From an uncultured delta proteobacterium (GTDB lineage: Bacteria; Myxococcota; UBA727; VGSZ01): a stretch of DNA of 64,000 nt. The notes beneath the pieces are model-generated. The model saw only the letters and a list, made by a program, of their open reading frames with translations. It made no database searches and was not told the origin of the DNA. Below are positions 1,038 through 64,000 of the stretch, one piece after another. Each line of letters opens with the position of its first letter. Within the stretch, counting starts at the first letter, position 1. A program made the position numbers and the translations under genes. Location: positions 480,001-544,000 of the forward strand of contig CAVZJB010000005.1 in NCBI GenBank assembly GCA_963775425.1, written 5' to 3'.

Positions 1038-1105
1038 GGGGTACCTCGAAAACGGCGAAGCGGGCGGGAGGGGCGAGAGCGACGACGACGGCGTGGCGGG
1101 AGGGG

Positions 1106-37647: not shown

Positions 37648-38679
37648 ATGCAGACGCACTCCCCCGTCAAGCGCCTCCACAACGACATCCACGCGCTGAA
37701 GAACGCGCAGCACGCCAAGGGCCACGACAAGGCCGAGCTCAAGCGCGACACGCGAACGCTCAAGACCGACAAGCGGCAGGCCCAGCACCTCCACGACCGC
37801 TTCGAGAAGAACAAGGACGCGCTCAACAAGGACCGAAAGCGGCTCCACACGCTGCACGATCACGAAAAGACGAAGCTCCAGGCCCTCGAGGCGCGCCGCG
37901 CCGACGTGCAGCGCCGCTACGACGCGAGCGTGGATCCGCTCACGGGCCAGGGCGACGTCGGGCTCCAGACGCAGCTCGCGGCGCTCGATCAGGACATCGC
38001 CGGCGTGCACGCGCGCCTCGATCCGCGCATCCAGACCGCCACGGGTGACAGGGACGCCCTCAAGCAGGTCCTCGACCGCCAGCGGCTCGCGCTCAAGCAG
38101 GATCACCACGCCGTGCAGCGCGACAGCCGTGCGGTGAAGCAGGACAACAAGGCGCTCGCCCATGACGCCCAGCGCGTGAAGAGCCATCGCGCGCGGGCCA
38201 TGCATGACCTCCGGCCTGCCGAGTACAAGATGGGCCTCAAGGGCACCAACGCCGCGCGCAAGGACCTGGGCCTCAAGCCGGTCAAGCACGTGATCCGGCC
38301 GGGCGTCGCGAACGTCGTCGGCGGACAGGTGGGCAAGTGGATCGCCGAGGCGCAGACCGTCTTGAAGCAGCACGGCGTGCCGCTGTCGAAGATGAACGCC
38401 CACGACATCGCGACGATCATCAAGTTCGAGTCGGGCGGGAACCCGCGCGCGGTCAACAACTGGGACTCGAACGCCGCCGCGGGACATCCTTCGGAGGGCT
38501 TGATGCAGACCATCGGCCCCACCTTCGACGCGTACAAGCTGCACGGCCACGGGCACATCCTGAACCCGGTGGACAACATCATCGCCGGCGTCCGCTACGC
38601 AATCTCGCGCTACGGGAGCATCTCCAACGTGCCCGGCATCCAGGCGGTGCACGCCGGGGGCAGCTACGTCGGCTACTGA
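37648..38679 (+). CDS. Coiled-coil protein with C-terminal lytic transglycosylase (SLT) domain
   Basis: ESGGNP.A.NNWDSN, GLMQ, NPVDNIIAGVRY..RYG; charged N-terminal coiled coil. Confidence 0.85.
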   Translation: MQTHSPVKRLHNDIHALKNAQHAKGHDKAELKRDTRTLKTDKRQAQHLHDRFEKNKDALNKDRKRLHTLHDHEKTKLQALEARRADVQRRYDASVDPLTGQGDVGLQTQLAALDQDIAGVHARLDPRIQTATGDRDALKQVLDRQRLALKQDHHAVQRDSRAVKQDNKALAHDAQRVKSHRARAMHDLRPAEYKMGLKGTNAARKDLGLKPVKHVIRPGVANVVGGQVGKWIAEAQTVLKQHGVPLSKMNAHDIATIIKFESGGNPRAVNNWDSNAAAGHPSEGLMQTIGPTFDAYKLHGHGHILNPVDNIIAGVRYAISRYGSISNVPGIQAVHAGGSYVGY

Positions 38680-38840
38680 GCCTCGTGGGGCGTGCCCTCG
38701 TCACGAGGGGGGCTGTCCCTCCCCGCATCCGGGCGCGCCGAAGCGGGGTCGCACTTTCTCCTATCGCGCCCGCCACGGTTGACCTCGAAGCGACGACGAG
38801 CGAGAACATTGGGCCGCCTCTTTTCGTGCGAGGTCACCCC

Positions 38841-44890: not shown

Positions 44891-44912
44891 ACTCTCTCTT
44901 TCGGATGACGCC

Positions 44913-45908
44913 GTGAACCTGCGATCGCTCGCCCCCCTCGGACTCTCCCTGGCAGTCGCCGCCACGTGCGCCGGCGTGGGCGTCGCGTTCGCCGCCCACG
45001 CGGCGCCCCCCGCGCCGCCGCCGGCCGCGCCGCCGCCGCCGGCGGCCACGGGCAACGGCCCGCCCACGGGGATGAACCTCATCGACACCTCGAGCCCCTT
45101 CGACCACGACGTCCACCTGAACCCCGCCAAGATGGGCGGCAAGAAGATGGGCTGCGAGTCCTGCCACAAGATGGTGAACAAGGACGGCACCTGCCCCAAG
45201 CAGGAGGTGCGGTTCCCCGAGCACGACGCCTGCCAGGCGTGCCACACGGCGAACTTCTATACGCAGCCGCTCACCATCTGCACCAACTGCCACAAGGCCA
45301 ACATCTTCCAGAAGCGGCCGCCGCTGCGCGAGCTGACCCGGCAGGTCACGCCGCGCAAGGCGGAGTTCTCGCACCGAAGCCACCTCGATGCGAAGAAGGG
45401 CACGGACTGCACCTCGTGCCACTCGGTGCTCAGGGGCGGCCTCGTCATCGGGCACCCGAGCCACCCGAACTGCTGCCAGTGCCACTCGGGCCCCGGGCTC
45501 AACGGCAAGATCGCCGAGCCGCACATGAACAAGTGCGGCTCCTGCCATGACACGGCGAAGAACGCCGGGCGTCCGCCGTCCACCATCCACGACTTCAGCC
45601 ACAAGATGCACCGCGAAGACCCGCGTACGCATACGTCGGTGGCGTGCCAGCAGTGCCACATCAACATGGTCCAGGCCACGACGCTGCGGCAGATCCGCAT
45701 CCCGCCGATGCCCGTGTGCCTGCAGTGCCATGACGGCTCCGATCCGAACAAGCCGAACCCCAAGAACCCGGCGTGGAGCGGCACGGGCGCGTTCAACTTC
45801 ACCGCGTGCCTGAAGTGCCACCTCCCGGGCAGCATCCAGAACCGCCCGCTGCCTCCGGGCCACCCGGGGGCTCCCACCGCTCCCACCGAGGCGGGGGCCA
45901 ACCCATGA
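44913..45908 (+). CDS. Periplasmic nonaheme cytochrome c (three c7/c3-like triheme modules)
   Basis: Signal peptide; 9 CxxCH; FDHDVH, FSHRSH and FSHKMH each open a group of three hemes. Confidence 0.9.
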   Translation: MNLRSLAPLGLSLAVAATCAGVGVAFAAHAAPPAPPPAAPPPPAATGNGPPTGMNLIDTSSPFDHDVHLNPAKMGGKKMGCESCHKMVNKDGTCPKQEVRFPEHDACQACHTANFYTQPLTICTNCHKANIFQKRPPLRELTRQVTPRKAEFSHRSHLDAKKGTDCTSCHSVLRGGLVIGHPSHPNCCQCHSGPGLNGKIAEPHMNKCGSCHDTAKNAGRPPSTIHDFSHKMHREDPRTHTSVACQQCHINMVQATTLRQIRIPPMPVCLQCHDGSDPNKPNPKNPAWSGTGAFNFTACLKCHLPGSIQNRPLPPGHPGAPTAPTEAGANP

Positions 45909-47950
45909 GTGCCGCTGTCTTCCGCCGCCGCGTCCGCGCGGCGCTGCCCTTCGCCGGTCTCGCGGTCCTCGTCGTCGCCGGCGCGCTCGTGGTGAACGGG
46001 GCCATGGCCACCGAGCGCCACAAGGTCGAGGACGGCGAGACCGTCGAGGCCATCGCGCAGGCGATGTACGGCGATCCCGGCAAGGCCGCCATCGTCCGCG
46101 CGGCGAACAAGATCCCCGACGGCGAGCAGCCGGCGGTGGGCGCGTTCCTCAAGATCCCCGGGCCGCTGATCCACACGGTGCAGGCCGGTGAGAACCTGCA
46201 GAAGGTCGCCGACCGCTTCCTCTCCGGCGAGGGCGGCGCGGCCATCATCGCCGAGGCCAACGGTCTCGCGGCCAACGCGCACTTGAAGCCCGGCCAGGTG
46301 CTGACGGTGCCGGCCGAGGTGGAGCTGCGCACCAAGGGCAAGTCCGCGGAGGACATCGCCACCGCGCTCCTCGGCGACGCGCACCTCGGCGCGCGCATCC
46401 GCCGCTACAACGGCGTCGCCGACGGCGGGAAGCTGCCCGCCAAGATCTACGTGCCCCTCGTCGGCATCGAGCCGCTCGGCGCGCCCGGCGCCGTCGCGGT
46501 CGCGCCCGCCGCGCCTGCGCCTGCGCCCACGCCGGCGCCGCCGACGGCGCCCGCGCCCGTCCCCGCCGCGCCGGTCCCCGCCGCGCCGGTCCCCGCGCCG
46601 GCCGCGCCTGCACCGGCGGCGCCTGCGCCCGCGGCGCCTGCTCCCGCGGCGCCTGCTCCGGCGGCGCCGGCCCCGCTGCGCCGGCGGCTCCGGCCCCCGC
46701 GGCCCGCGCCCGCGCCCGCGCCCGTGCCCGCGCCCGTGCCCGCGATGTCGCCTGCGATGGGCGGCCCGATCGATCTCACGATGCCGGTCACGGGCAAGCG
46801 CGCCACGCTCGCGGGCTTCTCGCACGCGCTGCACACGCCGCTGCAGATCGGCGGCAAGCCCGTCGGCTGCCTCGTGTGCCACGAGCGCGTGTCGCCGGAG
46901 TCCGTCGAGCACAAGGCGCCGTCCAAGGACAACTGCATGCTCTGCCACAAGGTGAGCGACGACATGCCGGCGCAGCTTCGCAAGGGACAGATCAAGCGGC
47001 TGCCGCTGCCGATGAACCACGAGCTGCACGTCGGGCAGAACGGCCTCGACTGCATCATCTGCCATCGCAACGAGCCCGAGCGGGCGCTCGGCATCATCAC
47101 CAACGGCCACGCGGCCTGCACCGTCTGCCACAACGCCAACGGCGGAAAGACGCCGTACGTCGGCGGCGACCCCGAGGGCGCGATGTGCACGCAGTGCCAC
47201 GGCACCGTCGAGCAGGTCGACGAGGGCAACGAGCACACCAAGTACCTGCGCGCGCACCTGATGCGTCCCGTGGGCCGCGTGGGCGACGTGAGCTTCACGC
47301 ACATGACGCACGCGGCGTTCTCCGAGAGCGGCGCGCCGGGCAGCGGTCCCGCCATCGACTGCAAGACCTGCCACGTCGACGCGTACACGGCAGAGCGCAA
47401 GGAAGACATCTCCAAGGTGCAGATGCAGGGCTGCCTCGAGTGCCACCGCGAGGCGAACGCGGTGGGGCTTCAGCCGCCGCAGTCGTGCAACGGCTGCCAC
47501 CTCTATCTGCGTCGCGGCGAGATGCCGATCAACCAGCTCACGCTCAAGAAGCCCATCGACCACACGCCGTTCTTCCGACGTCACCACGCCGACGCGGCGC
47601 GCGACAACGCGCCCCTATGCGCGTCGTGCCACGTGGGCTCCGACGGCGCGGACGGTAGCCGCTGCGACACCTGCCACATGACGATGAAGCCGCGCGATCA
47701 CACCGCCGGCTTCCGCGACAAGGTGCATGGGCGGGAGTCGCAGATCGATCCTGCGCGTTGCCAGGTCTGTCACCGCGCCGAGCGCTGCGAGAGCTGCCAC
47801 CGAGAAGTGCCCAAGAGCCACTTCCCGCTGAACGTCTGGGTCGACAAGGGTCTCCACGGCTCGCGCGGCCGCCTCGAGATGGGCGCATGCCTCACCTGCC
47901 ACCGCTTCGAGACCACCTGCCAGCGTTGCCACACCGCCGTCGCCAAGTAG
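45905..47950 (+). CDS. LysM x3, Pro/Ala linker, 14-heme cytochrome c
   Basis: ATGA overlap; signal peptide; HKVEDGETVEAIA..AN..G..LKIP, HTVQAGENL..AN..LKPGQVLTVP and a degenerate third LysM; 14 CxxCH. Confidence 0.9.
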   Translation: MSAAVFRRRVRAALPFAGLAVLVVAGALVVNGAMATERHKVEDGETVEAIAQAMYGDPGKAAIVRAANKIPDGEQPAVGAFLKIPGPLIHTVQAGENLQKVADRFLSGEGGAAIIAEANGLAANAHLKPGQVLTVPAEVELRTKGKSAEDIATALLGDAHLGARIRRYNGVADGGKLPAKIYVPLVGIEPLGAPGAVAVAPAAPAPAPTPAPPTAPAPVPAAPVPAAPVPAPAAPAPAAPAPAAPAPAAPAPAAPAPLRRRLRPPRPAPAPAPVPAPVPAMSPAMGGPIDLTMPVTGKRATLAGFSHALHTPLQIGGKPVGCLVCHERVSPESVEHKAPSKDNCMLCHKVSDDMPAQLRKGQIKRLPLPMNHELHVGQNGLDCIICHRNEPERALGIITNGHAACTVCHNANGGKTPYVGGDPEGAMCTQCHGTVEQVDEGNEHTKYLRAHLMRPVGRVGDVSFTHMTHAAFSESGAPGSGPAIDCKTCHVDAYTAERKEDISKVQMQGCLECHREANAVGLQPPQSCNGCHLYLRRGEMPINQLTLKKPIDHTPFFRRHHADAARDNAPLCASCHVGSDGADGSRCDTCHMTMKPRDHTAGFRDKVHGRESQIDPARCQVCHRAERCESCHREVPKSHFPLNVWVDKGLHGSRGRLEMGACLTCHRFETTCQRCHTAVAK

Positions 47951-50554: not shown

Positions 50555-52105
50555 TCAGGGCTTCGCGGCGTCGGGGTGCATCATGGTCGCGTCGAACACG
50601 CCGCGGTCTGGGGGCGGCGCTTCGGGCGGCGGGTGGAAGTCGAGGGCGCAGCCGAGCCGGCGCGCCTTGTCGACGTCCATCATGACGACGTGCGGCTGCT
50701 TCCACGTCGGGTACAGGGACAGGTTCACCTCGCGGCTGCCGAACACGCGCTGAAACAAGAACGGGTCGCCGCCGTGCCACTTCCACGGGTGCTGAAGCTC
50801 GGTGGTGAGGGCGATGACGGAGCGCGTCTCGGCCGTCGGCGCCGCCACCACGTTCGGGCGCGCCTTGCCGTCGAGGCCGCGCAGCGCCTCCCGCACGGCC
50901 GGCGACACGAGGAAGGTCTCGTCGGGGCGGCGGTCGAGATACGAGGCAATCTCCTCGACCGGCGCGCTGGACTTGTTGGCCGCGACCGTCTGCGCGGCGA
51001 AGGCCAGGTAGCCCGCGTCGACGACGACGACGATGACGAGAGGAGCGGCGAGCACGCGAAACCGCCCCGCCGCCGCCGCCGCCGCGCACGCCAGGAGCGG
51101 CACGAGCGGCAGGAAGTTGCGCACGATGAAGGTCGGCTGAACGAGGAACAGCCCGAGCAGCGCCGCGGCGAGCACGAGCGGCGCCGCGCGCGCCGGCGCC
51201 GCCCGCACCGCGGGGACCGCCAGCGCGAGGCCGGCCAGCGCACACGCGAGCACCACCAGGGATCCGACGACGAACGGCGAAGCCGCGCAGCAGGCGAACC
51301 AACGCACGAGGTGGAACACCATGTCGAAGAACCCGTCGACGCCGTAGCCGGCGGCGCCACCGCCATAGATGCGCGATTGGTAGCGGAGCGCGGCGACGAC
51401 GAGCTGCGGCTCGACGACGGCGCCGGGCGTGACGACGACGAACGCCGCCAGGCACGCGCCGCCGGCGATCAGCAGCCGCTTGAAGCGCGGCGCCATGAGG
51501 AGCGCCGCCAGCGCGACGGAGAGCGCGACGAGCCCCAGGGTGTACTTGGTGGACGCCGCCATGCCGCCGAAGATCGCGGCGACGACGAGATCGCGCGTGC
51601 GCCCCTCGGGCCGGGCGGCGAACGCCAGCGACGTCGTCAACAGGAGCGTGCCGAGGGCGTCCGGCGCGATGTAGCGGGCGTGCGTCGCGAATTCGAACGA
51701 CGTGCCGGCGAGCGCCGCGGCGAGCGCCGCCACCAGCGGCCGGCTGCCGAGCGCGCGCGCGAGCGCCGCGGTGGCCACGGGCGTGAAGGCGGTGACGACG
51801 ATGAGCACCGCGCGGATCTCGAGGAAGAAGCGGTGGTACTCGGGGCGCGACGTGAGCCCCAACAGGAACGGCGACGCCGTGGCCGCGATGACGTCGAAGA
51901 TCGCCATCGGGTAGCCGTAGGTGCGCGGGAGCGGCACGTGGTTTTCCACGGCCCACATGAAGGTCCACACGTTGGTGGGCTCGTCCCAGTTCCCGCCGCC
52001 GATATCGAGGCCGACGAGCCCCGTCACGGCGAGCCAGGCGACCACCGCCGCGACCGCGACGCGCGCGAGCGACGCCTCGCGCCGTTGCCAATCGCCGGAG
52101 AGCAC
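50555..52105 (-). CDS. GT-C (ArnT/PMT, family 39-like) membrane glycosyltransferase
   Basis: WDE motif after the first TM, ARYIAPD, GMAASTKY, RNFLPLVP. Start estimated at GTG 52105. Confidence 0.78.
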   Translation of the reverse strand: MLSGDWQRREASLARVAVAAVVAWLAVTGLVGLDIGGGNWDEPTNVWTFMWAVENHVPLPRTYGYPMAIFDVIAATASPFLLGLTSRPEYHRFFLEIRAVLIVVTAFTPVATAALARALGSRPLVAALAAALAGTSFEFATHARYIAPDALGTLLLTTSLAFAARPEGRTRDLVVAAIFGGMAASTKYTLGLVALSVALAALLMAPRFKRLLIAGGACLAAFVVVTPGAVVEPQLVVAALRYQSRIYGGGAAGYGVDGFFDMVFHLVRWFACCAASPFVVGSLVVLACALAGLALAVPAVRAAPARAAPLVLAAALLGLFLVQPTFIVRNFLPLVPLLACAAAAAAGRFRVLAAPLVIVVVVDAGYLAFAAQTVAANKSSAPVEEIASYLDRRPDETFLVSPAVREALRGLDGKARPNVVAAPTAETRSVIALTTELQHPWKWHGGDPFLFQRVFGSREVNLSLYPTWKQPHVVMMDVDKARRLGCALDFHPPPEAPPPDRGVFDATMMHPDAAKP

Positions 52106-52147
52106 GTCCCCGAGGATGCCCGCCCGGGCGTCGGAAAACAAACCACG

Positions 52148-52177
52148 TTGTCGCGCCCGAGGCCGCCGCAGTAGGCT
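52148..52177 (+). promoter_or_regulatory. Putative sigma70 promoter TTGTCG-N18-TAGGCT, possibly giving a leaderless transcript
   Basis: The -10 hexamer ends 7 nt before ATG 52185; no Shine-Dalgarno sequence. Confidence 0.4.
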
Positions 52178-52184
52178 GGCCGCA

Positions 52185-53627
52185 ATGACCGACGTCTCCG
52201 ACGAGTGGACGGCGCTTCTCAAGGCCATCCCCTTCCTCTCCGCGCTCCCGGAAAAGACCCTGAAGGACAGGGTCATCCTCGGAAAGATCCCGCAGGCCGA
52301 GGTGCCCGCCTCCCTCGTCGAGGTAGGCGACGGCGAGCTGGTGATCCGCGAGGGGGACTTCGGCGACACCTTCTACGTCATCGTCAACGGCACCTTCGTC
52401 GTCGAGGTGTGGAACGACGACGGCGTCGCCGTCGAGGTCACGCGCATCGGCCGCGGCTCCTACTTCGGTGAGCTCGCCATGATCGGCCGCGGCATGCGCG
52501 CGGCGTCGGTGAAGGCGGTCGGCGCGGGCGCGCAGGTGCTCGAGATCTACAAGGGCCCGTTCGACCGCATCATCAAGGACGACAAGACCAACTCGGTGAA
52601 GAACGCGCTCGAGGCCATCTACGCGCGGCGCACCATCGAGAAGTTCGTGCGTGACAACGAGTACCTGCGCGAGCTGTCCGAGGTCGACAAGAAGCTGATC
52701 GTCGACACCGGCAAGCTTCACCGCGTGGAGGCCTTCCACGACGTGTACAAGGCCGGTGATCCGCCCAAGAGCTTCTACCTCGTGCGCCAGGGCTTCCTGA
52801 AGGTGTGGCGCATGGAGGGCGAGGTGGAGAGCATCCTCGCCTACCTGCGCGACAAGGACTTCTTCGGCGACCTCGAGCTCGTCGAGGGGCGCCAGCGCAC
52901 GGCCACGGTGACGTCGATGGAGCCGGTTGAGCTCGTGGAGCTGCCGCGCTCGGTGTTCGCCGGCATCTACCAGCGCTACCCCGACCTCATCAAATCGTTC
53001 CGCCGCTACGAGCTCGACCGCCGCGCCGAGCTGCCGCAGTTGTCGAGCAAGACCGGCATGATGTTCGTCAAGGACCTCATCGAGTCCGGCATGGGCCAGG
53101 CGCGCTCGGCGCTCATCATCAACATGGACCTGTGCACCCGCTGCGGCAATTGCGTGCAGGCGTGCAGCGACCTCCACGACGGGTACTCGCGGCTCATCCG
53201 CCGCGGCAAGAAGCTCACCCACCGTGACGACGGCGGCGGCCTCGAGAACCTCTTCTTCCCGAACTCCTGCGTGCATTGCCGCACGCCCGACTGCATGGCC
53301 GGCTGCCCCGTCGGCTCCATCGCGCGCGACAAGGACGGCGAGGTCTACATCAAGGACTTCTGCGTCGGCTGCGGCGCGTGCGCCAAGGGCTGCGAGTTCG
53401 GCAACATCTCGATGGTGGTCGCCAAGAACGCCGACGGCACCGAGAAGAAGATGGCCGGCAGCAACAAGGTCGTGCGCAAGGCCTCCAAGTGCGACATCTG
53501 CAAGGGCTACGAGCAAGCCAACTGCGTCTACAACTGCCCGCAGGGCGCCATCATCCGCATCGACCCCAACGAGTACTTCGAGGAGCTCCACCGCACGGTG
53601 GACATCGTCTCGATGGCGCAGGGCTGA
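52185..53627 (+). CDS. Tandem cyclic-nucleotide-binding domains fused to a 4x[4Fe-4S] DmsB/NrfC-like ferredoxin
   Basis: FGELAM...RAASV and FGDLEL...RTATV; CTRCGNCVQAC, CVHC...CMAGCP, CVGCGACAKGC, KCDIC...CVYNCP; no signal peptide. Confidence 0.9.
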   Translation: MTDVSDEWTALLKAIPFLSALPEKTLKDRVILGKIPQAEVPASLVEVGDGELVIREGDFGDTFYVIVNGTFVVEVWNDDGVAVEVTRIGRGSYFGELAMIGRGMRAASVKAVGAGAQVLEIYKGPFDRIIKDDKTNSVKNALEAIYARRTIEKFVRDNEYLRELSEVDKKLIVDTGKLHRVEAFHDVYKAGDPPKSFYLVRQGFLKVWRMEGEVESILAYLRDKDFFGDLELVEGRQRTATVTSMEPVELVELPRSVFAGIYQRYPDLIKSFRRYELDRRAELPQLSSKTGMMFVKDLIESGMGQARSALIINMDLCTRCGNCVQACSDLHDGYSRLIRRGKKLTHRDDGGGLENLFFPNSCVHCRTPDCMAGCPVGSIARDKDGEVYIKDFCVGCGACAKGCEFGNISMVVAKNADGTEKKMAGSNKVVRKASKCDICKGYEQANCVYNCPQGAIIRIDPNEYFEELHRTVDIVSMAQG

Positions 53628-53677
53628 GGCCCGGCTGCCGGCGACCTCACGCCGGCGCTCCGCGGTAGCATCGGCGC

Positions 53678-55990
53678 ATGCGCGCCCCCGCCCTCTTCGT
53701 CATCGCCGCCGCGTTGGGCTCCCTCGCGGGCGGCTGCTCCTCGTGCGGCGCGCCCGCGGCGTCGGACGCCGGCCCGGGCGGCGGCGAGGGCGAAGGGGAA
53801 GGCGAAGGCGAAGGAGAGGGCGACGTCGACGCCGGGACCCCCGACGCCGGGCCGCAAGACGCGGGCCCGCCCAATCCGAACGCCGTGGGCCTCGACGCGC
53901 GCCCGTCGAACCCCACGTGCCTCGCGCAGGACCGGCCGCCCACGGGGAGCACCGTCGACTTCGAGGAGCCCTGGCCCGAGCTGAACGTCGTCTCGCCGGT
54001 CTTCATGCTCCAGGAGCCCGGCACCACGACGATGTACGTCGTGCAGCGCGGCGGGAAGGTGGTGCGCTTCGACAAGGCCGACGCCGCCGTCACAAACCCC
54101 GAGGTCTTCGCGGACATCACGGCGAACGTGCAGGCCAACGACGTCGGCAACGACGAGCGCGGTCTCCTGGGCATGGCCTTCCATCCGGACTGGCCGCAGG
54201 TGCAGGAGGTCTTTTTGAGCTACACCGGCTTCGGCGCCGGCGGCGCCCTCGTGGACCGCGTGTCGCGCTTCACGCTCGCGGCCGACGGCACCGTCGACGT
54301 CGGCAGCGAGCAGATCCTCCTCGACACCGCCGACTTCGCCGGCAACCACAACGGCGGGATGATCGCGTTTTCGCCCACGGACGCCTGCCGCGGCTGCCTG
54401 TACTACGGCGACGGCGACGGCGGGCAGGCCGACGACCCGCACCAAAACGGCCAGTCCGGGCAGACGCACCTCGCCAAGATCCTGCGCATCGACATCGACA
54501 GGACCGACCCGGGCCTCCCCTACGCCATCCCGCCGGACAACCCGTTCGTCGACGACGCCGACTTCCTCCCCGAGATCTACGCGTACGGGGTGCGCAACCC
54601 GTGGCGCTGGAGCTTCGACCGCGACAGCGGCGACCTCTGGGTCGGCGACGTCGGGCAGGGCGCCGTGGAGGAGGTCGACAAGATCCTCGCCGGCGGCAAC
54701 TACGGCTGGGACATCCTCGAGGGCGACCAGTGCCACGAGCAGACGTCGGGGAGCTGCAATCAGGGCGGCTTCGAGGCGCCCATCACCACGTACACCCACG
54801 CCGGCGGCCGCAACGCGATCGTCGGCGGCTACGTCTACCGGGGCAGCGCCATGCCCGCGCTCGTGGGCACGTATTTGTTCGCGGACTTCGGCACCGGTGA
54901 GATCTTCGCGCTGTTCTTCGACACCCAGGGCAACGCGGCGCCGCAGCGCGTGGGCGACTCGCCGAACAACATCGCGAGCTTCGCCGAGGACGCCGACGGC
55001 GAGCTCTACGTCCTCGACCACGCCACCGGCATCGTTCGCAAGCTCGTAGCTGCGGGCCCGCAGCCGCCGGACAACTTCCCGCGTCTGCTGTCGCAGACCG
55101 GGTGCGTCGACCCGGCCGACCCGGCGGCGCCGGCGGGCGGGCTCATCCCGTACGGGGTCAACCATGTCCTGTGGTCCGACGGCGCCGTGAAGGAGCGCTT
55201 CATGGGCCTGCCCGACGGGCTGAAGGCCACCATCCTCGACGACGGCGACATCGACTTCCCCGTGGGCACGGTCCTGATGAAGACCTTCAAGGTCGGCGGC
55301 GTGCGCGTGGAGACGCGGCTGTTGATGCACCACGACGACGGCGACTGGGGCGGCTACACCTACGAGTGGAACGACGCCGGCACCGACGCCACCCTGCTGC
55401 CGCCGGCAGGCAAGATCAAGGCGCTGCCAAACGGCCAGCTCTGGACGTACCCGTCGCGCAACGGCTGCCTCGCCTGCCACACCGCCGCCGCGCACCGCGC
55501 GCTCGGTCCCGAGGTGGCGCAGCTCAACGGCGGCTTCGTCTATCCCGACGGCCGCTTCGCGAACCAGCTCCATACCCTCGACGCCATCGGCGTGCTCGAC
55601 GCGCCGCTGCCGGGCGCCCTGGCGGACCTGCCGGCGTTCCCGCCCGTCGACGACGCCGCGGCGTCGCCCGAGGCCGTGGCGCGGGCGTACCTGCACGTGA
55701 ACTGCTCCATCTGCCATCGCCCGGGCGGCATCGGCGTCGCCGACACGGACTGGCGCTTCACCACGGCGTTTCAGGACATGGCCTTGTGCAACGCCGAGCC
55801 CACCGAGGGTGACCTCGGCGTCGCCGGCGCCAAGCGCCTCGTCCCCGGAGACCCCGCGCGCTCCCTCATCTCGCTGCGCATGAAGCGTTTGGGCGCCGGC
55901 CGCATGCCGCTCCTCGGCAGCGTCGTCGTGGACCCCCAGGGCACCGCGGCCATCGACCGTTGGATCACGTCGCTGTCGTCATGTCCCTGA
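53678..55990 (+). CDS. Lipoprotein: PQQ-dependent sugar dehydrogenase (GSDH-like propeller) fused to a diheme cytochrome c domain
   Basis: LAGGC lipobox; (GE)n/DAG linker; ERGLLGMAFHP, NHNGG, YAYGVRNPWR, GNYGW; LWSDGA.KER, CLACH, YLHVNCSICH, RMP. Confidence 0.88.
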   Translation: MRAPALFVIAAALGSLAGGCSSCGAPAASDAGPGGGEGEGEGEGEGEGDVDAGTPDAGPQDAGPPNPNAVGLDARPSNPTCLAQDRPPTGSTVDFEEPWPELNVVSPVFMLQEPGTTTMYVVQRGGKVVRFDKADAAVTNPEVFADITANVQANDVGNDERGLLGMAFHPDWPQVQEVFLSYTGFGAGGALVDRVSRFTLAADGTVDVGSEQILLDTADFAGNHNGGMIAFSPTDACRGCLYYGDGDGGQADDPHQNGQSGQTHLAKILRIDIDRTDPGLPYAIPPDNPFVDDADFLPEIYAYGVRNPWRWSFDRDSGDLWVGDVGQGAVEEVDKILAGGNYGWDILEGDQCHEQTSGSCNQGGFEAPITTYTHAGGRNAIVGGYVYRGSAMPALVGTYLFADFGTGEIFALFFDTQGNAAPQRVGDSPNNIASFAEDADGELYVLDHATGIVRKLVAAGPQPPDNFPRLLSQTGCVDPADPAAPAGGLIPYGVNHVLWSDGAVKERFMGLPDGLKATILDDGDIDFPVGTVLMKTFKVGGVRVETRLLMHHDDGDWGGYTYEWNDAGTDATLLPPAGKIKALPNGQLWTYPSRNGCLACHTAAAHRALGPEVAQLNGGFVYPDGRFANQLHTLDAIGVLDAPLPGALADLPAFPPVDDAAASPEAVARAYLHVNCSICHRPGGIGVADTDWRFTTAFQDMALCNAEPTEGDLGVAGAKRLVPGDPARSLISLRMKRLGAGRMPLLGSVVVDPQGTAAIDRWITSLSSCP

Positions 55991-56158
55991 GCGCCGTGAA
56001 GCGGGCAGGCGCGGTCGCGTTCGCCCCGGCGCTCGCGGCGGCCCTTGGGGCGCGAGGCGGCCCGGGGCGCGCCGGCGCCGGTGCCGTCGTCCCACATCGA
56101 CGTTCCTTCGGGCGGCAGGGTCGACTTCGAGGGGGAGATCAGGGATAACGGGCCCCCG

Positions 56159-57085
56159 ATGGCAAGCACGACAGCACCCGCCCCTGCCGCGCCGCTGAAG
56201 CCGAAGAGCAGCAAGAAGCTCTCCGACAAGACACTCAAGGAGCGCGCGTTCCGCTGGGACAAGCTCGCCGCGTGGCTCGCGGCGTTCTTCGCCCTGGCCG
56301 CCGTCTGCGGCCTGTGGGCGCTCTCCAAGTACGTCCTCGACGCGCCGTCGCGGGGCGGGCGCGGCACCGGCGGCGACACCATCGTCGGCTACACCCTCGC
56401 GGGCATCACCCTCATCCTCTACGGCGTCGTCGCCGCGTACTCGTGGCGCCACAAGCGGCGCCGGCAGAAGCGCGCGATGACCCGGGTCTGGATGGAGGTG
56501 CACCTGGCGTTCGGCATGGTCGCCGGCGTCACGGCCATCCTCCACTCGGGCCCCAAGCTCGGGGCGCCCATCCACGGCGCGTTCCTCATCGCCTGGGAGC
56601 TCCTCATCCTCACGGGCATCGTCGGCAAGCTCATCAGCGTCTACGTGCCGCGCCGGCTCACGCGCATCGAGGACGAGGCCCTGCTGGTGGAGGACGTGGC
56701 CGAGCGCCAGAAGGCCATGCGCCTCGAGATCGAGCAGCTCCTCACGGACTGCGACGACAAGCTGGTGCACATCGTCAACGACGTCATCCCCAAGAAGATC
56801 AAGGCGCCCGACTGGTACGGCAAGCGCCGCATGAAGCGCCACGACGTCGTGGAGAGCGTCTACAAGGCCATCGACGGCGAGGGCATGCTCGCCCGCGGCG
56901 AGGTCCCCGCCGACAAGAAGGACTGGCTCAAGCGCATGATCACGTGCCTGGTCGAGGAGGAGTTCCTCGATCGCATGCTCACCTACCACTACGTGCTGCG
57001 CGCGTGGGTGCCCGTCCACGTGGCGCTCACCACGCTGTGCTTCCCCTGGCTCATCTTCCACGTCGTCAGCGTGTTCTTGATCTAG
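56159..57085 (+). CDS. Inner-membrane protein with two H-x13-H helices (putative di-heme b, ferric-reductase-like TM domain)
   Basis: About 5 TMs; WMEVHLAFGMVAGVTAILH and WVPVHVALTTLCFPWLIFH. Confidence 0.78.
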   Translation: MASTTAPAPAAPLKPKSSKKLSDKTLKERAFRWDKLAAWLAAFFALAAVCGLWALSKYVLDAPSRGGRGTGGDTIVGYTLAGITLILYGVVAAYSWRHKRRRQKRAMTRVWMEVHLAFGMVAGVTAILHSGPKLGAPIHGAFLIAWELLILTGIVGKLISVYVPRRLTRIEDEALLVEDVAERQKAMRLEIEQLLTDCDDKLVHIVNDVIPKKIKAPDWYGKRRMKRHDVVESVYKAIDGEGMLARGEVPADKKDWLKRMITCLVEEEFLDRMLTYHYVLRAWVPVHVALTTLCFPWLIFHVVSVFLI

Positions 57086-57095
57086 AGGTCCACCG

Positions 57096-60000
57096 ATGTT
57101 CTGCCTGAAGGTCGTCGACGGACTGTCTGCCGGTATCGAGATCCTGCTCAAGCAGGGAGGCACCACCACCGTCGGCCGCGCCGAGGACGCCGACGGTCAG
57201 ATCGAAGACGGCCTGTGCTCCGGCAAGCACTTCGAGATCGAGTGGACGGCGGCGGGGATGATCATCAAGGACCTCGGGTCCTTGAACGGCGTCTTCGTCA
57301 ACGGCGAGCGCGTCCGCGAAAACCGCCAGGTCAAGCGCGGCGACTTCATCCAGGCCGGGACCACGCTGATGGAGATCGCCGTCAGCTCGGGCAACGTCGA
57401 GGTCAAGGTCAGCGAGCGCGAGCCGGCCATCAGCGGCAAGGCCACGATGATGATGGACGCGGCGGCGGTGCAGGACGCCATCGCGCGCACCCGCGCCCAG
57501 GCGCGCGTGAAGGCCAAGGAGCTCAACCGCACCGTCATCAAGACGCAGATGATGACCAAGGCCGAGATCGCCAAGCTGATGACCGATCAGCCGGTGAGCA
57601 AGGCCAAGACCATGGTCCTGCAGGCGCTCCCGCCGGAGATCCTCGCGGGCACCAACAACGCCGGCCTGGCCATCCTGCAGAAGCTCCTCGCCGACGTCAC
57701 GCCCGACAACCCCACCGTGTGCGTGGTCAAGAAGGGCGCGTCCATCACGCCCTACGCCAAGAGCGTCATCACGCTCGGCCGTGACGCGCGCAACGACATC
57801 CCGCTCATCAGCGACGACGTCTCCGGCAGCCACGCCCGCATCGTGAAGGAGCCGTCGGGGCGCTTCGAGGTCATCGACGAGGGCTCCACCAACGGCACCT
57901 TCGTCAACGGCAAGCGCGTCGTGCGCCAGTACCTGCAAAACGGCGACACCATCCAGCTCGGCCAGTGGACCGGGCCCGTGGCGCTCTCTGCCGGGCGCAT
58001 GGCCATGGAGCTCAACCGCGAGGGCGTCTCCGTCAAGGACGACAAGGGCGTCATCAAGGTCCTCAAGGTCGGCGACGAGGGCGCCAAGGAGTGGGACCCG
58101 CTTCTGCGTGAAGCCGTGCGCGCGCCGATGCTCGTCAAGAGCGACCGTGGCGAGAAGTTCAAGAAGAAGAAGAAGGGCAAGAGCGCCGACGACATCGCGT
58201 TCCGCGCCACCGGTGACGTCCAGCGCGGGGCGATGAAGAGCCGGCTCGCGTGGGCCGGCGTCCTGACGTCGCCGATCGTCATCGCGCTGTTCTTCGGCGG
58301 CTACTTCGTCGTCTCGCTGCTGCACAAGGGCTCCACCTTCGATGCGCTCTCCCCGGGCGCCATCACCAACGCGCACGCGAGCGAGACGTTCATCGCCAAG
58401 GCCAAGGAGGCGGCGTCGGCGGAGAACAAGTTCGGCGGTCACACCACCTGCTTCGCGTGCCACCCCGGGCTCAACCGCGAGGTGACGGACACCGCCTGCT
58501 CGAGCTGCCACTCCCAGGTACCGACGTCGACGCACACCGAGGTGGGGCTCACCTGCTTCGACTGTCACGGCGAGCACAACGGCCGCAACTTCTCGCCGAC
58601 GGCGCAGGCGCGGCTCGGCTGCGTCGGCTGCCACCAGGGCGACCCGCACGCGCGCCTCTTCGACAAGGGCGAGGGGAAGAAGGCGCGGGCCAAGGCGCCG
58701 GTGATCACGCAGGCGCAGCTCAACATCGACAAGGCCGAGGTGCACGAGAAGCACTTCAACATCGAGGGGCGCTGCGTCGCGTGCCACGCCGTCGCCGAGG
58801 GTGCGACGGCGCTGACCAGCCCGGAGGAGATCGCCAAGCAAGCGCGCAAGTCGTGCGGCATCTGCCACGCCGCCACCGACCCGCAGCCCGACGAGTGCGT
58901 GCGTTGCCACGTGCAGCACCCGAAGGACGCCGCGCTCGTCGAGTTCCTGAAGGCGCAGCCCACCAACGAAGACGACATCAAGCAGGCGCGCATCGATCCC
59001 GGCACCGTGCCCATCTTCCTCGCGCTCGCCTTCGGCATGACGCTGCCGCTCGTGCTCGCGGCGGTGGTCAAGCCGAAGCCGAAGCAGAAGAAGGAGCAGG
59101 TCGTCGAGGAGAAGGCGGGCGCCAAGCCTGCGGGCGCTCCCGCCGGCGCCGCGCCGCCTCCGCCCGGCCCGCCGGGCGCGCCGCCGCCCCCTCCCGGGGC
59201 GCGGGCTCCGGGGCCACCTCCCCCGCCACCGGGCGGGGCGCCGCCGCCTCCGCCGCCGGGCGGGGCGCCGCCGCCGCCGCCGCCACCGGGCGGGCGCGCG
59301 GCGCCGCCGCCGCCTCCGCCGCCGGGCGGCATGGCGCCGCCTCCGCCGCCTCCGCCGGGGGGCGCGCCGCCGCCGCCGCCTCCGCCGCCGGGGGGCCGCG
59401 TCGCGCCGCCGCCTCCGCCGCCGCCCGGCGGGGTCCCCGCGCCGCCGCCGCCGCCCGGTGGCGTGCCGCCTCCGCCTCCGCCCCCGGGAGGGATGGCGCC
59501 GCCTCCGCCTCCGCCGCCGGGCGGTGTGCCGCCTCCGCCCCCTCGTGCCGCGCCGCCGCCTCCCCCGGGAGTCCCGCCGCCGCCGCCGCCCCCCGGAGGC
59601 CCGCCGCCGCCGCCGCCCGCCGCGGCCCGGCCAGCGCCCGCGGCGCCGCCGCCTCCGCCCCCGCCCGCCGCGGTGGCGCCTCCGCCGCCTCCTGCGGCGC
59701 GGCCGGCGCCGCCGCCGCCACCCCCTCCCGCCGCGCGGCCAGCGCCGCCTCCGCCGCCTCCCGCGGCGCGGCCGGCGCCTCCACCGCCGCCGCCGGCAGC
59801 CGCACCTCCGCCGCCGGCGCCCCGGCCGGTGGCGCCGGCGCCGGTGCCCGCGCCTCCTCCGCCGGCTCCGGTGGTGCGCGCGGGGACCAAGGCCGCGATG
59901 CAGATCCCGGCACAGCCCGCCCCGGTGCCGGCGCAGCCCGCGGTGCGCGCGGGGACCAAGGCCGCGATGCAGATCCCCGACCCGCGCCAGGCGCCACAGC

Positions 60001-60227
60001 CGCCACAGCCGCCGCAGCAGGGGCAGCCGCCGCCACAGCAGCCGCCACCGCAGGGGCAGTTCCGCAACCCGACGACGGCCAAGGGGACGATGCTCGGGAC
60101 CATGCCCGTCGTCGACGAGGACATGATCCGGCGCGCCCAGCAGCAGATCAACCAGGGCAAGCCCGGCACGCAGGTCTCCGGCAAGGGCGGCGCCGCGCCG
60201 CTGCCGCCGGACAAGGACAAGAAGTAG
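57096..60227 (+). CDS. 2xFHA, TM, heptaheme cytochrome c, TM, poly-proline tail
   Basis: VGR..SGKH..GSLNGVFVNG and LGR..SGSH..STNGTFVNG; two hydrophobic helices flank 7 CxxCH; long GGxPPPPPPP region. Confidence 0.9.
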   Translation: MFCLKVVDGLSAGIEILLKQGGTTTVGRAEDADGQIEDGLCSGKHFEIEWTAAGMIIKDLGSLNGVFVNGERVRENRQVKRGDFIQAGTTLMEIAVSSGNVEVKVSEREPAISGKATMMMDAAAVQDAIARTRAQARVKAKELNRTVIKTQMMTKAEIAKLMTDQPVSKAKTMVLQALPPEILAGTNNAGLAILQKLLADVTPDNPTVCVVKKGASITPYAKSVITLGRDARNDIPLISDDVSGSHARIVKEPSGRFEVIDEGSTNGTFVNGKRVVRQYLQNGDTIQLGQWTGPVALSAGRMAMELNREGVSVKDDKGVIKVLKVGDEGAKEWDPLLREAVRAPMLVKSDRGEKFKKKKKGKSADDIAFRATGDVQRGAMKSRLAWAGVLTSPIVIALFFGGYFVVSLLHKGSTFDALSPGAITNAHASETFIAKAKEAASAENKFGGHTTCFACHPGLNREVTDTACSSCHSQVPTSTHTEVGLTCFDCHGEHNGRNFSPTAQARLGCVGCHQGDPHARLFDKGEGKKARAKAPVITQAQLNIDKAEVHEKHFNIEGRCVACHAVAEGATALTSPEEIAKQARKSCGICHAATDPQPDECVRCHVQHPKDAALVEFLKAQPTNEDDIKQARIDPGTVPIFLALAFGMTLPLVLAAVVKPKPKQKKEQVVEEKAGAKPAGAPAGAAPPPPGPPGAPPPPPGARAPGPPPPPPGGAPPPPPPGGAPPPPPPPGGRAAPPPPPPPGGMAPPPPPPPGGAPPPPPPPPGGRVAPPPPPPPGGVPAPPPPPGGVPPPPPPPGGMAPPPPPPPGGVPPPPPRAAPPPPPGVPPPPPPPGGPPPPPPAAARPAPAAPPPPPPPAAVAPPPPPAARPAPPPPPPPAARPAPPPPPPAARPAPPPPPPAAAPPPPAPRPVAPAPVPAPPPPAPVVRAGTKAAMQIPAQPAPVPAQPAVRAGTKAAMQIPDPRQAPQPPQPPQQGQPPPQQPPPQGQFRNPTTAKGTMLGTMPVVDEDMIRRAQQQINQGKPGTQVSGKGGAAPLPPDKDKK

Positions 60228-60340
60228 CGCTCGGCGGAGCACGCTCGCCGGCCCGCCGGAGCTGGGCCCGCCGGCGGGGATCCGGCCGCGCTCAGAAGAC
60301 GTGCGCCGCGCCTGCAGGCAGAGCGAACGAGCCACCATTC

Positions 60341-60400
60341 GCAACCTGATGGTTGCACACGTCCACAGAGGCGGCTACGCAGGCGTAACCAGGAGGTTGC
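60341..60400. promoter_or_regulatory. Two ArsR-type operator candidates, G(C/T)AACC-N4-GGTTGC
   Basis: GCAACC-TGAT-GGTTGC at 60341-60356; GTAACC-AGGA-GGTTGC at 60385-60400, covering the Shine-Dalgarno sequence. Confidence 0.65.
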
Positions 60401-60402
60401 AC

Positions 60403-60921
60403 ATGTCTGCCCCGACCCCCAGCGATCGCATCGAGAAGGTCGTCACCCTCAACGCGCCCGTGTCGCGCGTGTGGCGCGCCGTCGCCGACAGCGCCGAATT
60501 CGGGCGCTGGTTCGGGGTGACGCTCGGCGGCCCGTTCGTCGAGGGGCGCGCCCTGCGCGGCACGTTCACGGGCGAGCTCCCGGTCGACGCCATCGCGTCA
60601 CAGCAGCGCGCGCTCGGCCTGCCGCCGTCGCCGGTGAGGACGCCGCCCGCCGTGTTCTGCACCGTGGAGCGCGTCGAGCCGGAGCGCGCTCTCGCGTTTC
60701 GCTGGATCCCGTACGGCATCGACGCCGCCGTCGACCCCGCCCACGAGCCCACGACGCTCGTGGAATTCCGTCTCGAGGCCGTCCCCGAGGGCACGCGGCT
60801 CACCATCACGGAGTCGGGCTTCGACAAGGTCCCGGAGCACCGGCGCCGGCGTGCCTTCCTCATGAACGACGCCGGCTGGGCCGAGCAGGCGAAGAACATC
60901 GCGCGCCATGTCGAGGGCTGA
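60403..60921 (+). CDS. SRPBCC (AHSA1-like) domain protein
   Basis: IEK...APVSRVWRA..D..EFG.WF, FRW.P, TLVEF.L..GTRLTITESGF, GW. Confidence 0.9.
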   Translation: MSAPTPSDRIEKVVTLNAPVSRVWRAVADSAEFGRWFGVTLGGPFVEGRALRGTFTGELPVDAIASQQRALGLPPSPVRTPPAVFCTVERVEPERALAFRWIPYGIDAAVDPAHEPTTLVEFRLEAVPEGTRLTITESGFDKVPEHRRRRAFLMNDAGWAEQAKNIARHVEG

Positions 60922-63021: not shown

Positions 63022-63120
63022 CGACGACGGAGACCCTGCACGTCGGCACACCCGCCGAGCGCGAGATCCGCGTCGAGCGCACGTTCCACGCGGCCCGCGA
63101 CCGCGTCTGGCGCGCGCAGC
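63018..63120 (+). pseudogene. SRPBCC gene 5' fragment
   Basis: ATGA-coupled MTTTETLHVGTPAEREIRVERTFHAARDRVWRA, then the frame enters a tandem repeat. Confidence 0.65.
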
Positions 63121-63450
63121 GCGAGCGGTGCGCGGCGGCGCGAGCGGTGCGCGGCGGCGCGGCGGCGCGAGCGGTGCGCGGCGGCGCGAGCGGTGCGCGG
63201 CGGCGCTCGGCGCGAGCGGTGCGCGGCGGCGCGAGCGGTGGGCGGCGGCGCGAGCGGTGCGCGGCGGCGCTCGGCGCGAGCGGTGCGCGGCGGCGCGAGC
63301 GGTGCGCGGCGGCGCTCAACGCGAGCGGTGCGCGGCGGCGCGAGCGGTGCGAGCGGTGCGCGGCGGCGCTCGGCGCGAGCGGTGCGCGGCGGCGCTCGGC
63401 GCGAGCGGTGCGCGGCGGCGCTCGGCGCGAGCCGTGCGCGGCGGCGCGCG
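63121..63450. repeat. GC-rich minisatellite, unit GCGAGCGGTGCGCGGCGGC with or without GCTCGGC, about 15 copies
   Basis: Read directly from the sequence; 19- and 26-bp unit variants, no unique spacers. Confidence 0.9.
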
Positions 63451-63611: not shown

Positions 63612-64000
63612 ATGAAGCGCGGGTGGCTCGTCGGTTTGTTCTTCGTCGTTTCGTGTGGGCACGAGGTGCTCGATCCCCAGCCACAGCGCGCCCCCACCGA
63701 CACCGGTGATCCCGGCTCGCAGGGCCCCGTCACGGGCCAGCAAAACGCCCCTGCCCCGAACGACTCCGGCGATCTCCCCGCGTGCGCGGCCGACGAGTGC
63801 GTCGCCGGCGACGGCTACTGCGACGTCGGCTTCTGCGCCGGGTGCGACGCCGACGCCGACTGCGACGGCACCGACCCCGGCGCGGATCCGGGCGACCTCC
63901 CGGCATGCACCGCGGACGACTGCGTCGCCGGCGACGGCTTGTGTGACGTGGGCTTCTGCGCCGAATGCAGCACCGACCCCGACTGCGACGACGCGGGGAC
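63612..64000 (+). CDS. Lipoprotein with tandem acidic Cys-rich repeats (runs off the window)
   Basis: GGAGG then MKRGWLVGLFFVVSC; GDLPAC.AD.CVAGDG.CDVGFCA.C..D.DC occurs twice. Confidence 0.75.
   Translation, partial: MKRGWLVGLFFVVSCGHEVLDPQPQRAPTDTGDPGSQGPVTGQQNAPAPNDSGDLPACAADECVAGDGYCDVGFCAGCDADADCDGTDPGADPGDLPACTADDCVAGDGLCDVGFCAECSTDPDCDDAG

Follow-up and report, generated by a model that had tools for sequence, protein, structure and literature searches.

A tandem-FHA heptahaem cytochrome and its conserved membrane and Fe-S neighbours, a candidate inner-membrane electron conduit

The FHA-cytochrome gene and its product

The window analysed here is a 64,000-nucleotide stretch of contig CAVZJB010000005.1, from an uncultured delta proteobacterium. 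On its plus strand, the open reading frame (ORF) 57096–60227 encodes a protein of 1043 amino acids, P0001, in which two forkhead-associated (FHA) domains, one transmembrane (TM) segment, a heptahaem c domain, a second TM segment and a Pro-rich tail follow one another; this architecture is read from the ORF, from Pfam matches and from 16 relatives (P0002–P0017). The FHA-cytochrome, as we call P0001, is preceded on the same strand by the gene of a 5-TM membrane protein and, further upstream, by that of a cytoplasmic Fe-S protein with cyclic-nucleotide-binding (cNMP-binding) domains. These conserved neighbours suggest an uncharacterised inner-membrane electron route. To our knowledge, it is poorly understood how bacteria regulate, within seconds, the passage of electrons into and out of the periplasm; most of what is known about the control of multihaem pathways concerns transcription.

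The original prediction, made from the sequence alone, described two FHA domains, a TM segment, seven CxxCH motifs and a second TM segment between 57096 and 59100. ORF translation, Pfam, a motif script and hydropathy all bore this series out. The end at 59100 was misplaced; it falls just after the second TM segment (TM2, which ends at nucleotide 59069), and the ORF continues to 60227. That reading covered neither the Pro-rich tail nor the neighbouring genes. The third-position G+C content (GC3) of the ORF is 0.92, as expected for a real gene, and the G+C content of the window is 0.66–0.78. We ruled out a high-G+C artefact as the origin of the ORF or of the tail, on account of this GC3 value and of the conserved end motif that the tails of the relatives share.

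In P0001, the Pfam model FHA (PF00498) matches two stretches (E = 2.5e-36; 124.4 bits against a cut-off of 20.7), with residues 225–289 as its best one. Yop-YscD_cpl, a model of FHA fold, also matches both domains and covers residues 5–95 for the first (E = 1.3e-21). For the haem part, Cytochrome_C7 scores 33.6 bits (cut-off 24.8) and Cytochrom_c3_2 30.1 bits (cut-off 25).

P0001 contains only two hydrophobic segments, at residues ∼384–410 and 636–658. The first, TM1 (residues 384–410, 58245–58325, +), is predicted to run from the cytoplasm to the periplasm by its hydropathy peak and flank charges, and corresponds to helix 374–409 of the AlphaFold model. TM2 (residues 636–658, 59001–59069, +; hydropathy 2.5) would lead back to the cytoplasm. 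The protein begins with an FHA domain from its very N-terminus, without a signal peptide. KKKKK at residue 356 precedes TM1 and seven Lys or Arg residues lie in 658–680 behind TM2, and the haem-side flanks of both segments are not basic. c-Haem is attached in the periplasm, and phosphothreonine chemistry takes place in the cytoplasm. The placement of the FHA domains in the cytoplasm and of the haems in the periplasm, as originally proposed, thus held up: no signal peptide was found, and the basic flanks lie on the FHA side only.

The periplasmic heptahaem domain (residues 427–608, 58374–58919, +) carries exactly seven CxxCH motifs, which the motif script located at residues 452, 468, 487, 509, 560, 587 and 601. 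It also contains seven further invariant His, and residues 400–640 have no Met. This composition fits seven bis-His haems, since each of the seven motifs could be paired with one additional His and no Met is at hand. Residues ∼547–606, with the last three CxxCH motifs, resemble the trihaem cytochrome c7 of PDB entry 3h4n (E = 1.9e-4). With multiple CxxCH motifs and a profile score above the cut-off, P0001 has the hallmarks of the class III multihaem cytochromes c (c3/c7).

The cytoplasmic tail after TM2 is 378 residues in length. Most of it is a Pro-rich spacer (residues 666–960, 59091–59975, +) with PPPPPPPGG-type repeats and 54% Pro, encoded by imperfect tandem DNA arrays with periods of 30, 33, 66 and 69 at 59139–59843. 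In the relatives, the spacer is highly variable in length or missing. Towards the end of the tail lie Thr motifs (59883–60107, +): GTKAAMQIP occurs twice (residues 930–938 and 953–961) and KGTMLGTMP once (996–1004). In most tailed relatives, a KGT[LM]LGT-type motif aligns at the tail end. A scan of 51800–60700 for promoters and terminators gave signals no better than those of shuffled sequences.

The family of FHA-heptahaem proteins

Relatives were collected with a word-seeded search of 5.8 billion proteins, which gave 90 matches at E≤0.001 among 8000 scored candidates. The 16 proteins P0002–P0017 resemble P0001 over the whole FHA-TM-haem length or are fragments of such proteins. They come from metagenomes or metagenome-assembled genomes throughout, the organism names among them are limited to Myxococcota and 'Deltaproteobacteria', and the sole product name is 'FHA domain-containing protein'. 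The remaining matches cover the FHA part only; many are FHA-FHA-ABC transporters and some are FHA-FHA-FAD oxidoreductases. The transporters align at 25–29% identity with the complete FHA-linker-FHA unit, ∼40% of the query.

In a family alignment of 15 sequences, in which identity falls as low as 29%, none of the 14 Cys and 7 His in the CxxCH motifs varies. Seven His outside the motifs are invariant as well, at positions 427, 480, 494, 518, 550, 553 and 608. All 17 family members examined contain exactly seven CxxCH motifs. The Pro-rich tail is missing from three of the 15 aligned relatives, P0012, P0016 and P0017.

Further searches extended the family little. A scan of genome contigs kept 80 loci, three of which extend past the FHA region; the other 77 encode unrelated FHA proteins and were not used. 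A profile search with alignment A3, run on the 7998 candidates sharing most words, found no further FHA-haem members and also missed P0016 and P0017. Looking for shorter proteins that have the haem domain but no FHA part returned two matches, P0242, which has one FHA domain and lacks TM2, and P0243, which is 337 amino acids long and probably a fragment. In an Atlas search, whose results serve as leads only, sizeable clusters with FHA and c7/c3 cytochrome domains appeared in Acidobacteriota, Planctomycetota and Pseudomonadota, so the combination of FHA and multihaem domains does not seem to be unique to this genome.

FHA domains and the inter-FHA linker

FHA domains contact phosphothreonine (pThr) through a G-R, S-x-x-H and N-G motif. 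FHA domain 1 of P0001 (residues 5–95, 57108–57380, +), assigned by the FHA and Yop-YscD_cpl matches and modelled with a predicted local confidence (pLDDT) of 78–90, has G27, R28, S42, H45, N64, G65, N69 and G70 invariant in 15 of 15 sequences. In FHA domain 2 (residues ∼200–310, 57693–58025, +; Pfam FHA core 225–289), the invariant residues of the same alignment are G228, R229, S243, H246, S264, N266, G267, N271 and G272. As judged from the alignment, both domains keep the pThr-binding residues in 15 of 15 sequences. Relatives of the FHA region in the PDB include OdhI/GarA and the FHA-1 and FHA-2 domains of Rv1747 (6ccd and 6cah).

The linker between the two domains (residues 96–199, 57381–57692, +) holds three Thr motifs, T117 in ATMMM, T150 in KTQMM and T172 in KTMVL. 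With two FHA domains joined by a linker of ∼100 residues, P0001 has the layout of the Rv1747-type tandem-FHA module. The predicted confidence of the linker is low (pLDDT 28–54, against 78–90 for the FHA domains), and it is probably flexible, as far as the model tells. The basic-Thr-hydrophobic motifs quoted in the original prediction are all present: KATMMM at residues 115–120, NRTVIK at 144–149, KTQMM at 149–153 and KTMVL at 171–175. Among 13 close relatives, T117 and T150 are kept in all 13 and T172 in 12; the motifs take the forms A-T-[MQ]-M-M, K-T-Q-M-[ML] and K-T-M-[VI]-[LM], respectively, and the residue at +3 is Met or Leu without exception. Distant members, at ∼30% identity, retain [AKR]-T-[MV]-M, as in AKTMM and KRTMM of P0016, MRTVM of P0017 and QATMM of the homologue at locus L003. 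Across the family, T[MQ]M[ML]/TM[VIM][LM] motifs are confined to the inter-FHA linker, and Met makes up only ∼2% of the residues.

The closest precedent for this arrangement is Rv1747 of Mycobacterium tuberculosis, whose linker residues T152 and T210 are phosphorylated by PknF (PMC8339232, abstract). Like P0001, Rv1747 is a membrane protein that carries, on its cytoplasmic side, two FHA domains and a ∼100-residue linker with conserved Thr. In the database, the FHA-linker-FHA unit of P0001 has its next-best relatives among the FHA-FHA-ABC proteins. Rv1747 reportedly clusters and phase-separates in a phospho-dependent manner (Heinkel et al. 2019). The two differ in the effector, which is an ABC transporter in Rv1747 and a multihaem cytochrome in P0001, where the linker phosphoacceptors are putative; Pfam found no ABC_tran or ABC2_membrane domain in P0001. 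By analogy, it is plausible that the linker Thr are self-phosphosites read by the FHA domains. A phospho-dependent interaction between the FHA domains and these Thr is, in our estimate, somewhat less likely than not.

The domain compositions give the FHA-linker-FHA cassette the look of a regulator that is portable among redox proteins. In P0064, two FHA domains accompany Pyr_redox_2, and P0254 contains Pyr_redox_2, two FHA domains, Fer4, two cNMP domains and a further Fer4 in one chain. This protein of 1387 amino acids, whose source names it a FAD-dependent oxidoreductase of Ktedonobacteraceae, thus connects the FHA, cNMP and Fe-S modules with a flavoenzyme of NAD(P)H type.

A membrane protein with four invariant His

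The gene directly upstream of the FHA-cytochrome encodes a 5-TM membrane protein, putatively a dihaem cytochrome b (56045–57085, +). It has no Pfam or NCBIfam match. The true start is probably M39 (56159), since this is where the alignments of the two closest relatives, P0092 and P0093, begin. When a library clustered at 50% identity, with 1.84 billion representatives, was searched exhaustively with HMMER, 443 relatives came up at E≤0.001; 43 of them reach E≤1e-10, and four reach E≤1e-30. We counted His in the best 150 matches plus P0091, a fusion protein described below; 102 of these 151 sequences cover window-protein residues 150–338, which together with the window protein makes 103. H153, H167, H325 and H339 are each 100% conserved in the 103 sequences. 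The mean column identity of alignment A2 (66 sequences) is as low as 22%, and its invariant columns are the four His and G191 only.

The four His are located in two helices, TM3 and TM5, both of which read W-x3-H-x13-H. Hydropathy and charge predict an N-in/C-out topology: loop 132–147 contains eight Lys or Arg and no Asp or Glu, and a separate loop of 122 residues is also cytoplasmic. Given this topology, H153 and H325 would sit close to the cytoplasmic side of the membrane, and H167 and H339 close to its periplasmic side. On the sequence, such an arrangement is the geometry needed for two stacked bis-His haems, and we infer that the four His may bind haem b.

The AlphaFold model of the protein is of good quality (pLDDT 83.2, pTM 0.73), and an Atlas search with it retrieved 'hypothetical protein' clusters only. 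Proteins of the ferric-reductase-domain (FRD) superfamily (NOX/STEAP/MsrQ) likewise have two helices that each carry two His 13 apart, at matching depths. Different from the window protein with its five TM segments, they have six, and the Pfam model Ferric_reduct does not match. Pfam, NCBIfam, PDB-profile and Foldseek searches all gave no significant profile or fold similarity to a ferric-reductase domain, and membership of the ferric-reductase family is not established. We also predicted a complex of the 5-TM protein (residues 60–346, alignment A2), the TM-haem-TM part of the cytochrome (residues 372–665, alignment A1) and two haems. Three runs, made without controls, scored 0.60, 0.08 and 0.08 (median 0.08; mark 0.32), and the prediction weighs neither for nor against binding.

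Fe-S partner, gene neighbourhood and fusions

The gene at 52197–53627 (+) encodes a cytoplasmic protein with two cNMP-binding domains (Pfam cNMP_binding, E = 7e-35) and a polyferredoxin module matched by Fer4 families, whose 16 Cys form four ferredoxin-type motifs, enough for up to four [4Fe-4S] clusters. Its NCBIfam matches to DsrO, DmsB, NrfC, HybA and HmcB are all sub-threshold, and none of the three core proteins reaches the cut-off of a curated NCBIfam family.

In the window, the 5-TM gene and the FHA-cytochrome gene are 11 bp apart on the same strand. At locus L002, a 59%-identical homologue of the 5-TM protein adjoins an FHA-cytochrome in divergent orientation, the two forming a pair of membrane protein and FHA-cytochrome. 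The FHA-cytochrome of locus L003 is just 27% identical to that of the window, and directly upstream of its gene lies that of P0091 (784 amino acids), in which two cNMP domains, Fer4 and a membrane domain are joined. The first 500 residues of P0091 are 44% identical to the 52197–53627 protein, and its C-terminus aligns with the 5-TM protein (E = 6e-9). The Fe-S, membrane-protein and FHA-cytochrome gene types are thus found together in the window and in L003, where the first two are fused. A 5-TM homologue stands beside the FHA-cytochrome in all three loci that have any flank (the window, L002 and L003); L001 has none.

Fusions connect the same modules in the wider family. Among the 41 homologues of the 5-TM protein with at least 350 amino acids, 30 contain cNMP_binding and Fer4, six Fer4 only, one a multihaem cytochrome and four no further domain. 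cNMP_binding and Fer4 stand N-terminal to the membrane domain in 30 of the 41. The multihaem fusion is P0211 (878 amino acids), whose 5-TM four-His domain is followed by a large C-terminal periplasmic domain with five CxxCH motifs. This fusion independently places the C-terminus of the 5-TM protein on the periplasmic side, because a C-terminal multihaem domain requires it.

Between the Fe-S and the membrane-protein genes, on the same strand, is a gene for a GSDH-like β-propeller joined to an SO2930-family dihaem cytochrome c (53678–55990, +; Pfam GSDH, E = 1.7e-40; two CxxCH), which is not conserved in L002 or L003. NCBIfam TIGR03806 scores 251.6 bits on it, under the cut-off of 313.3. Its N-terminus, read from the translation, resembles a lipoprotein signal (...LAGGCSSC). 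A nonahaem c7-type cytochrome is encoded at 44841–45908 (+), and a homologue flanks the module in L003 (6697–7632, −; 33% identity, E = 2e-50); each of the two has nine CxxCH motifs. It belongs to a string of cytochrome genes at 38208–47950 (+), 9–19 kb upstream of the FHA-cytochrome, whose products are a 1654-residue protein with nine CxxCH motifs and an LVIVD repeat, a 606-residue protein of no family, the 355-residue nonahaem c7-type cytochrome and a 738-residue LysM protein with 14 CxxCH motifs. These cytochromes may continue the same route as its periplasmic or outer section. At 810–1550 (+) of L002, a molybdopterin oxidoreductase (Oxidored_molyb, E = 8e-39) is encoded convergently with the 5-TM four-His homologue; the pairing of MsrP with MsrQ is a parallel for such an enzyme beside a putative haem-b membrane protein.

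A proposed electron conduit and its control

We propose that the three proteins constitute an inner-membrane electron conduit in three parts, in which the FHA-cytochrome is the periplasm-facing subunit and carries a phospho-regulatory cassette of its own. We give this reading a probability of about one half; that the FHA-cytochrome belongs to a conduit of this kind is somewhat more probable. Electrons would pass through the cytoplasmic, cNMP-responsive polyferredoxin (52197–53627; up to four [4Fe-4S] clusters, two cNMP-binding domains) to two b haems in the 5-TM protein, one near each membrane face and each held between one His of TM3 and one of TM5. From there they would reach the seven bis-His c-haems of the FHA-cytochrome, kept at the membrane by its TM hairpin, and then other periplasmic multihaem cytochromes. 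Ser/Thr kinases would phosphorylate T117, T150 and T172 of the linker, perhaps along with the Thr motifs that close the Pro-rich tail, and the resulting pThr would be bound by the FHA pair, in cis or in trans, as in the regulatory module of Rv1747. Such binding could switch the oligomeric state, the clustering or the partner contacts of the conduit and thereby the electron flux. A single complex of the three proteins, the phosphorylation of the linker Thr, and the direction of electron flow with its donor and acceptor are what we infer.

In its fullest form, the proposal would be a respiratory-type conduit that is built on a new four-His dihaem-b family and gated twice. Kinases would act on multivalent Thr motifs, three in the linker and more at the end of the polyproline tether, and their reading by the two FHA domains would make the cytochrome cluster or disperse in the membrane; a cyclic nucleotide would bind the Fe-S partner. 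We regard this extended version as doubtful.

A number of observations weigh against the proposed conduit. The AlphaFold model of residues 1–680 of P0001 is poor except for the two FHA domains and uninformative on how the domains pack (pLDDT 56.5, pTM 0.28). The Thr of the linker do not stand out locally, because conservation is high all along it in the 13 close relatives; QDAIARTRAQARVK is identical in 13 of 13 at most positions. The first Thr motif is missing from P0017. Neither a Ser/Thr kinase nor a PP2C phosphatase was found nearby among the window genes or the scanned flank genes of L003, and the nearest kinase of the window (7310–8959) is 48 kb from the FHA-cytochrome gene. For the 5-TM protein, a Foldseek search of the model against the PDB gave no matches at E≤0.001 (best E 0.18, TM-score below 0.3), so its fold is not recognisably that of a ferric reductase, NarI or cytochrome b. 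The best PDB profile match, the ferric-reductase domain of NOX5 (5o0t_A), is not significant (E = 0.17), although in this weak alignment, to the credit of the proposal, one H-x13-H pair coincides with a His pair of the same spacing in that chain. The Pfam PepSY_TM match of the L002 homologue is under the cut-off (20.4 against 28.8 bits). The genomic context comes from three loci only and its gene order varies, with the divergent orientation in L002 and the inserted GSDH-cytochrome gene in the window. No cytoplasmic dehydrogenase or flavin module to feed the Fe-S protein was found among the window genes.

The same data can be read in other ways. P0001 might be a redox receptor, whose heptahaem domain reports the redox potential of the periplasm and alters the conformation or availability of the FHA domains or the tail, so that phospho-signalling follows; this was the other half of the original prediction. 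A periplasmic domain between two TM segments with both ends in the cytoplasm is the classic layout of a sensor, FHA domains are signalling modules, the partner protein has cNMP-binding domains, and the tail contains no catalytic domain. Against a receptor, Pfam found no output domain (kinase, GGDEF or HTH) in P0001, and P0242 lacks TM2. A tight row of seven bis-His haems is typical of an electron wire rather than of a ligand or redox sensor. As conserved partners, P0001 has a 16-Cys polyferredoxin and a four-His membrane protein that are repeatedly fused to each other, the latter once to a multihaem cytochrome. Because the haems are wire-like and the partners and fusions are electron-transfer proteins, the receptor is the weaker half of that prediction, and we consider it improbable; the phospho-switch half stays plausible, with Rv1747 as its precedent. 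Alternatively, P0001 could act alone as a quinol dehydrogenase or quinone reductase of the CymA/NapC/ImcH type, with the 5-TM and Fe-S neighbours accessory or unrelated. Its periplasmic multihaem domain is indeed anchored in the membrane, and section 6.3.2 of a preprint on Ferrigenium hypothesises such a role for an FHA-nonahaem protein (bioRxiv 10.64898/2026.01.22.701106). We give this possibility little credence. NapC/NirT matches are absent (Pfam E≤0.01, NCBIfam E≤0.001), the first haem motif comes ∼40 residues past TM1, all haem sites lie outside the membrane, and the adjacency in three of three loci and the fusions of the membrane domain with Fe-S modules and with a cytochrome would be left unexplained. 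Membership of P0001 in NapC/NirT was rejected for the missing profile match and for the cytoplasmic region of 383 residues that precedes TM1.

A structural role is the third way to read P0001. A phospho-independent FHA fold, like those of YscD and GltG, would organise an envelope-spanning cytochrome machine, the tail would recruit proteins, and the Thr motifs would be structural. The match of Yop-YscD_cpl to both FHA domains (E = 1.3e-21), a sub-threshold NCBIfam match to GltG, the long polyproline stretches of the tail and the large multihaem cluster with LysM and LVIVD proteins 9–19 kb upstream are in line with a scaffold. The canonical FHA model scores far higher (124 bits), however, and the pThr-contacting Arg, Ser, His and Asn are invariant in both domains of 15 sequences, which is not expected for a phospho-independent FHA fold such as that of YscD. 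The Pro-rich tail, moreover, is missing in three of 15 relatives. A scaffold is thus very improbable in our view. In comparison with these readings, the FHA-cytochrome is best seen as combining an Rv1747-like FHA cassette with an Fe-S/cytochrome b/multihaem c conduit, around a four-His membrane family that has not been described.

Relation to known systems

In sulfate reducers, the Tmc, Hmc and DsrMKJOP complexes move electrons across the membrane with a periplasmic multihaem c subunit, a membrane haem-b subunit and a cytoplasmic Fe-S protein. By analogy, they would be the closest functional counterparts of the proposed conduit: the multihaem c, haem-b and Fe-S logic is the same, and the Fe-S module of the window has sub-threshold matches of the DsrO/HmcB type. 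Different from these complexes, the membrane subunit of the window has no detectable homology to NarI/DsrM-type cytochromes b and the Fe-S protein has no CCG domain; conversely, Tmc, Hmc and DsrMKJOP are not known to have the FHA and cNMP regulatory domains of the window module.

Similar triads, with no function assigned, have already been noticed in two preprints. The first, on Ferrigenium straubiae, describes an FHA-nonahaem cytochrome (NHC) flanked by a [4Fe-4S] protein and by a 5-TM protein without any InterPro match, and calls the union of FHA and multihaem domains previously unreported (bioRxiv 10.64898/2026.01.22.701106). As described there, the NHC cluster and the window share a cytosolic FHA part connected through a TM helix to a periplasmic multihaem c domain, next to 5-helix and [4Fe-4S] proteins. 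The NHC protein has one FHA domain, nine haems and one TM segment, whereas P0001 has two FHA domains, a linker with Thr motifs, seven haems, TM2 and the Pro-rich tail. The hosts also differ, Gallionellaceae for the NHC protein and Myxococcota-like relatives for P0001. According to Table 1 of a Gallionellaceae pangenome study, a cluster named 'Forkhead-associated protein' has 10 haem motifs and is present in 27 of the 87 genomes of iron oxidisers.

The second preprint, in the passages on the ptdABCDEFG operon of Alphaproteobacteria UBA11136, describes PtdE as a cNMP/4Fe-4S protein, PtdF as a 'ferric reductase-like' TM protein and PtdG as a decahaem cytochrome (bioRxiv 10.1101/2023.11.21.568154). 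Like the window, ptdEFG in this description encodes a cNMP/4Fe-4S protein, a transmembrane protein and a multihaem cytochrome together. Different from the FHA-cytochrome, PtdG is presented there as a periplasmic decahaem protein, with no FHA domain mentioned, and the operon as outlined also has a porin and an FAD/NAD(P) oxidoreductase, neither of which was found in the window. Both the NHC cluster and ptdEFG are likened to the window triad by their descriptions in these passages, not by sequence homology. The passages on such clusters mention no function, four-His motif or fusions, and the supplements may hold more.

With 443 relatives of its membrane component at E≤0.001, the module appears to be widespread and unstudied. 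It fuses a haem wire to pThr readers and an Fe-S partner to cyclic-nucleotide sensors. If the four-His protein is indeed a dihaem cytochrome b, it would represent a new family of transmembrane electron carriers, and the proposal, if true, would give a mechanistic frame to clusters of 'unknown function' in Fe(II)-oxidising Gallionellaceae and in marine Alphaproteobacteria.

Other features of the window

The kinase gene at 7310–8959 (+) encodes a Ser/Thr kinase with a PEGA domain, and its start is overlapped by the gene of an FHA-sigma54 activator (5887–7335, +). The gene at 10016–11365 (+) encodes a UbiA-family prenyltransferase with a fused PAS domain, and the one after it, at 11284–12435, a polyprenyl synthetase; a sensor domain on a membrane prenyltransferase is unusual. 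Two repeat regions lie close to the end of the window. The first, at 63110–63450, is a G+C-rich and apparently non-coding tandem array with periods of 19, 26 and 45 in ∼7–18 copies. The second, at 63768–63990, consists of 1.8 copies of a 123-bp unit, within a Cys/Asp-rich ORF that runs off the window.

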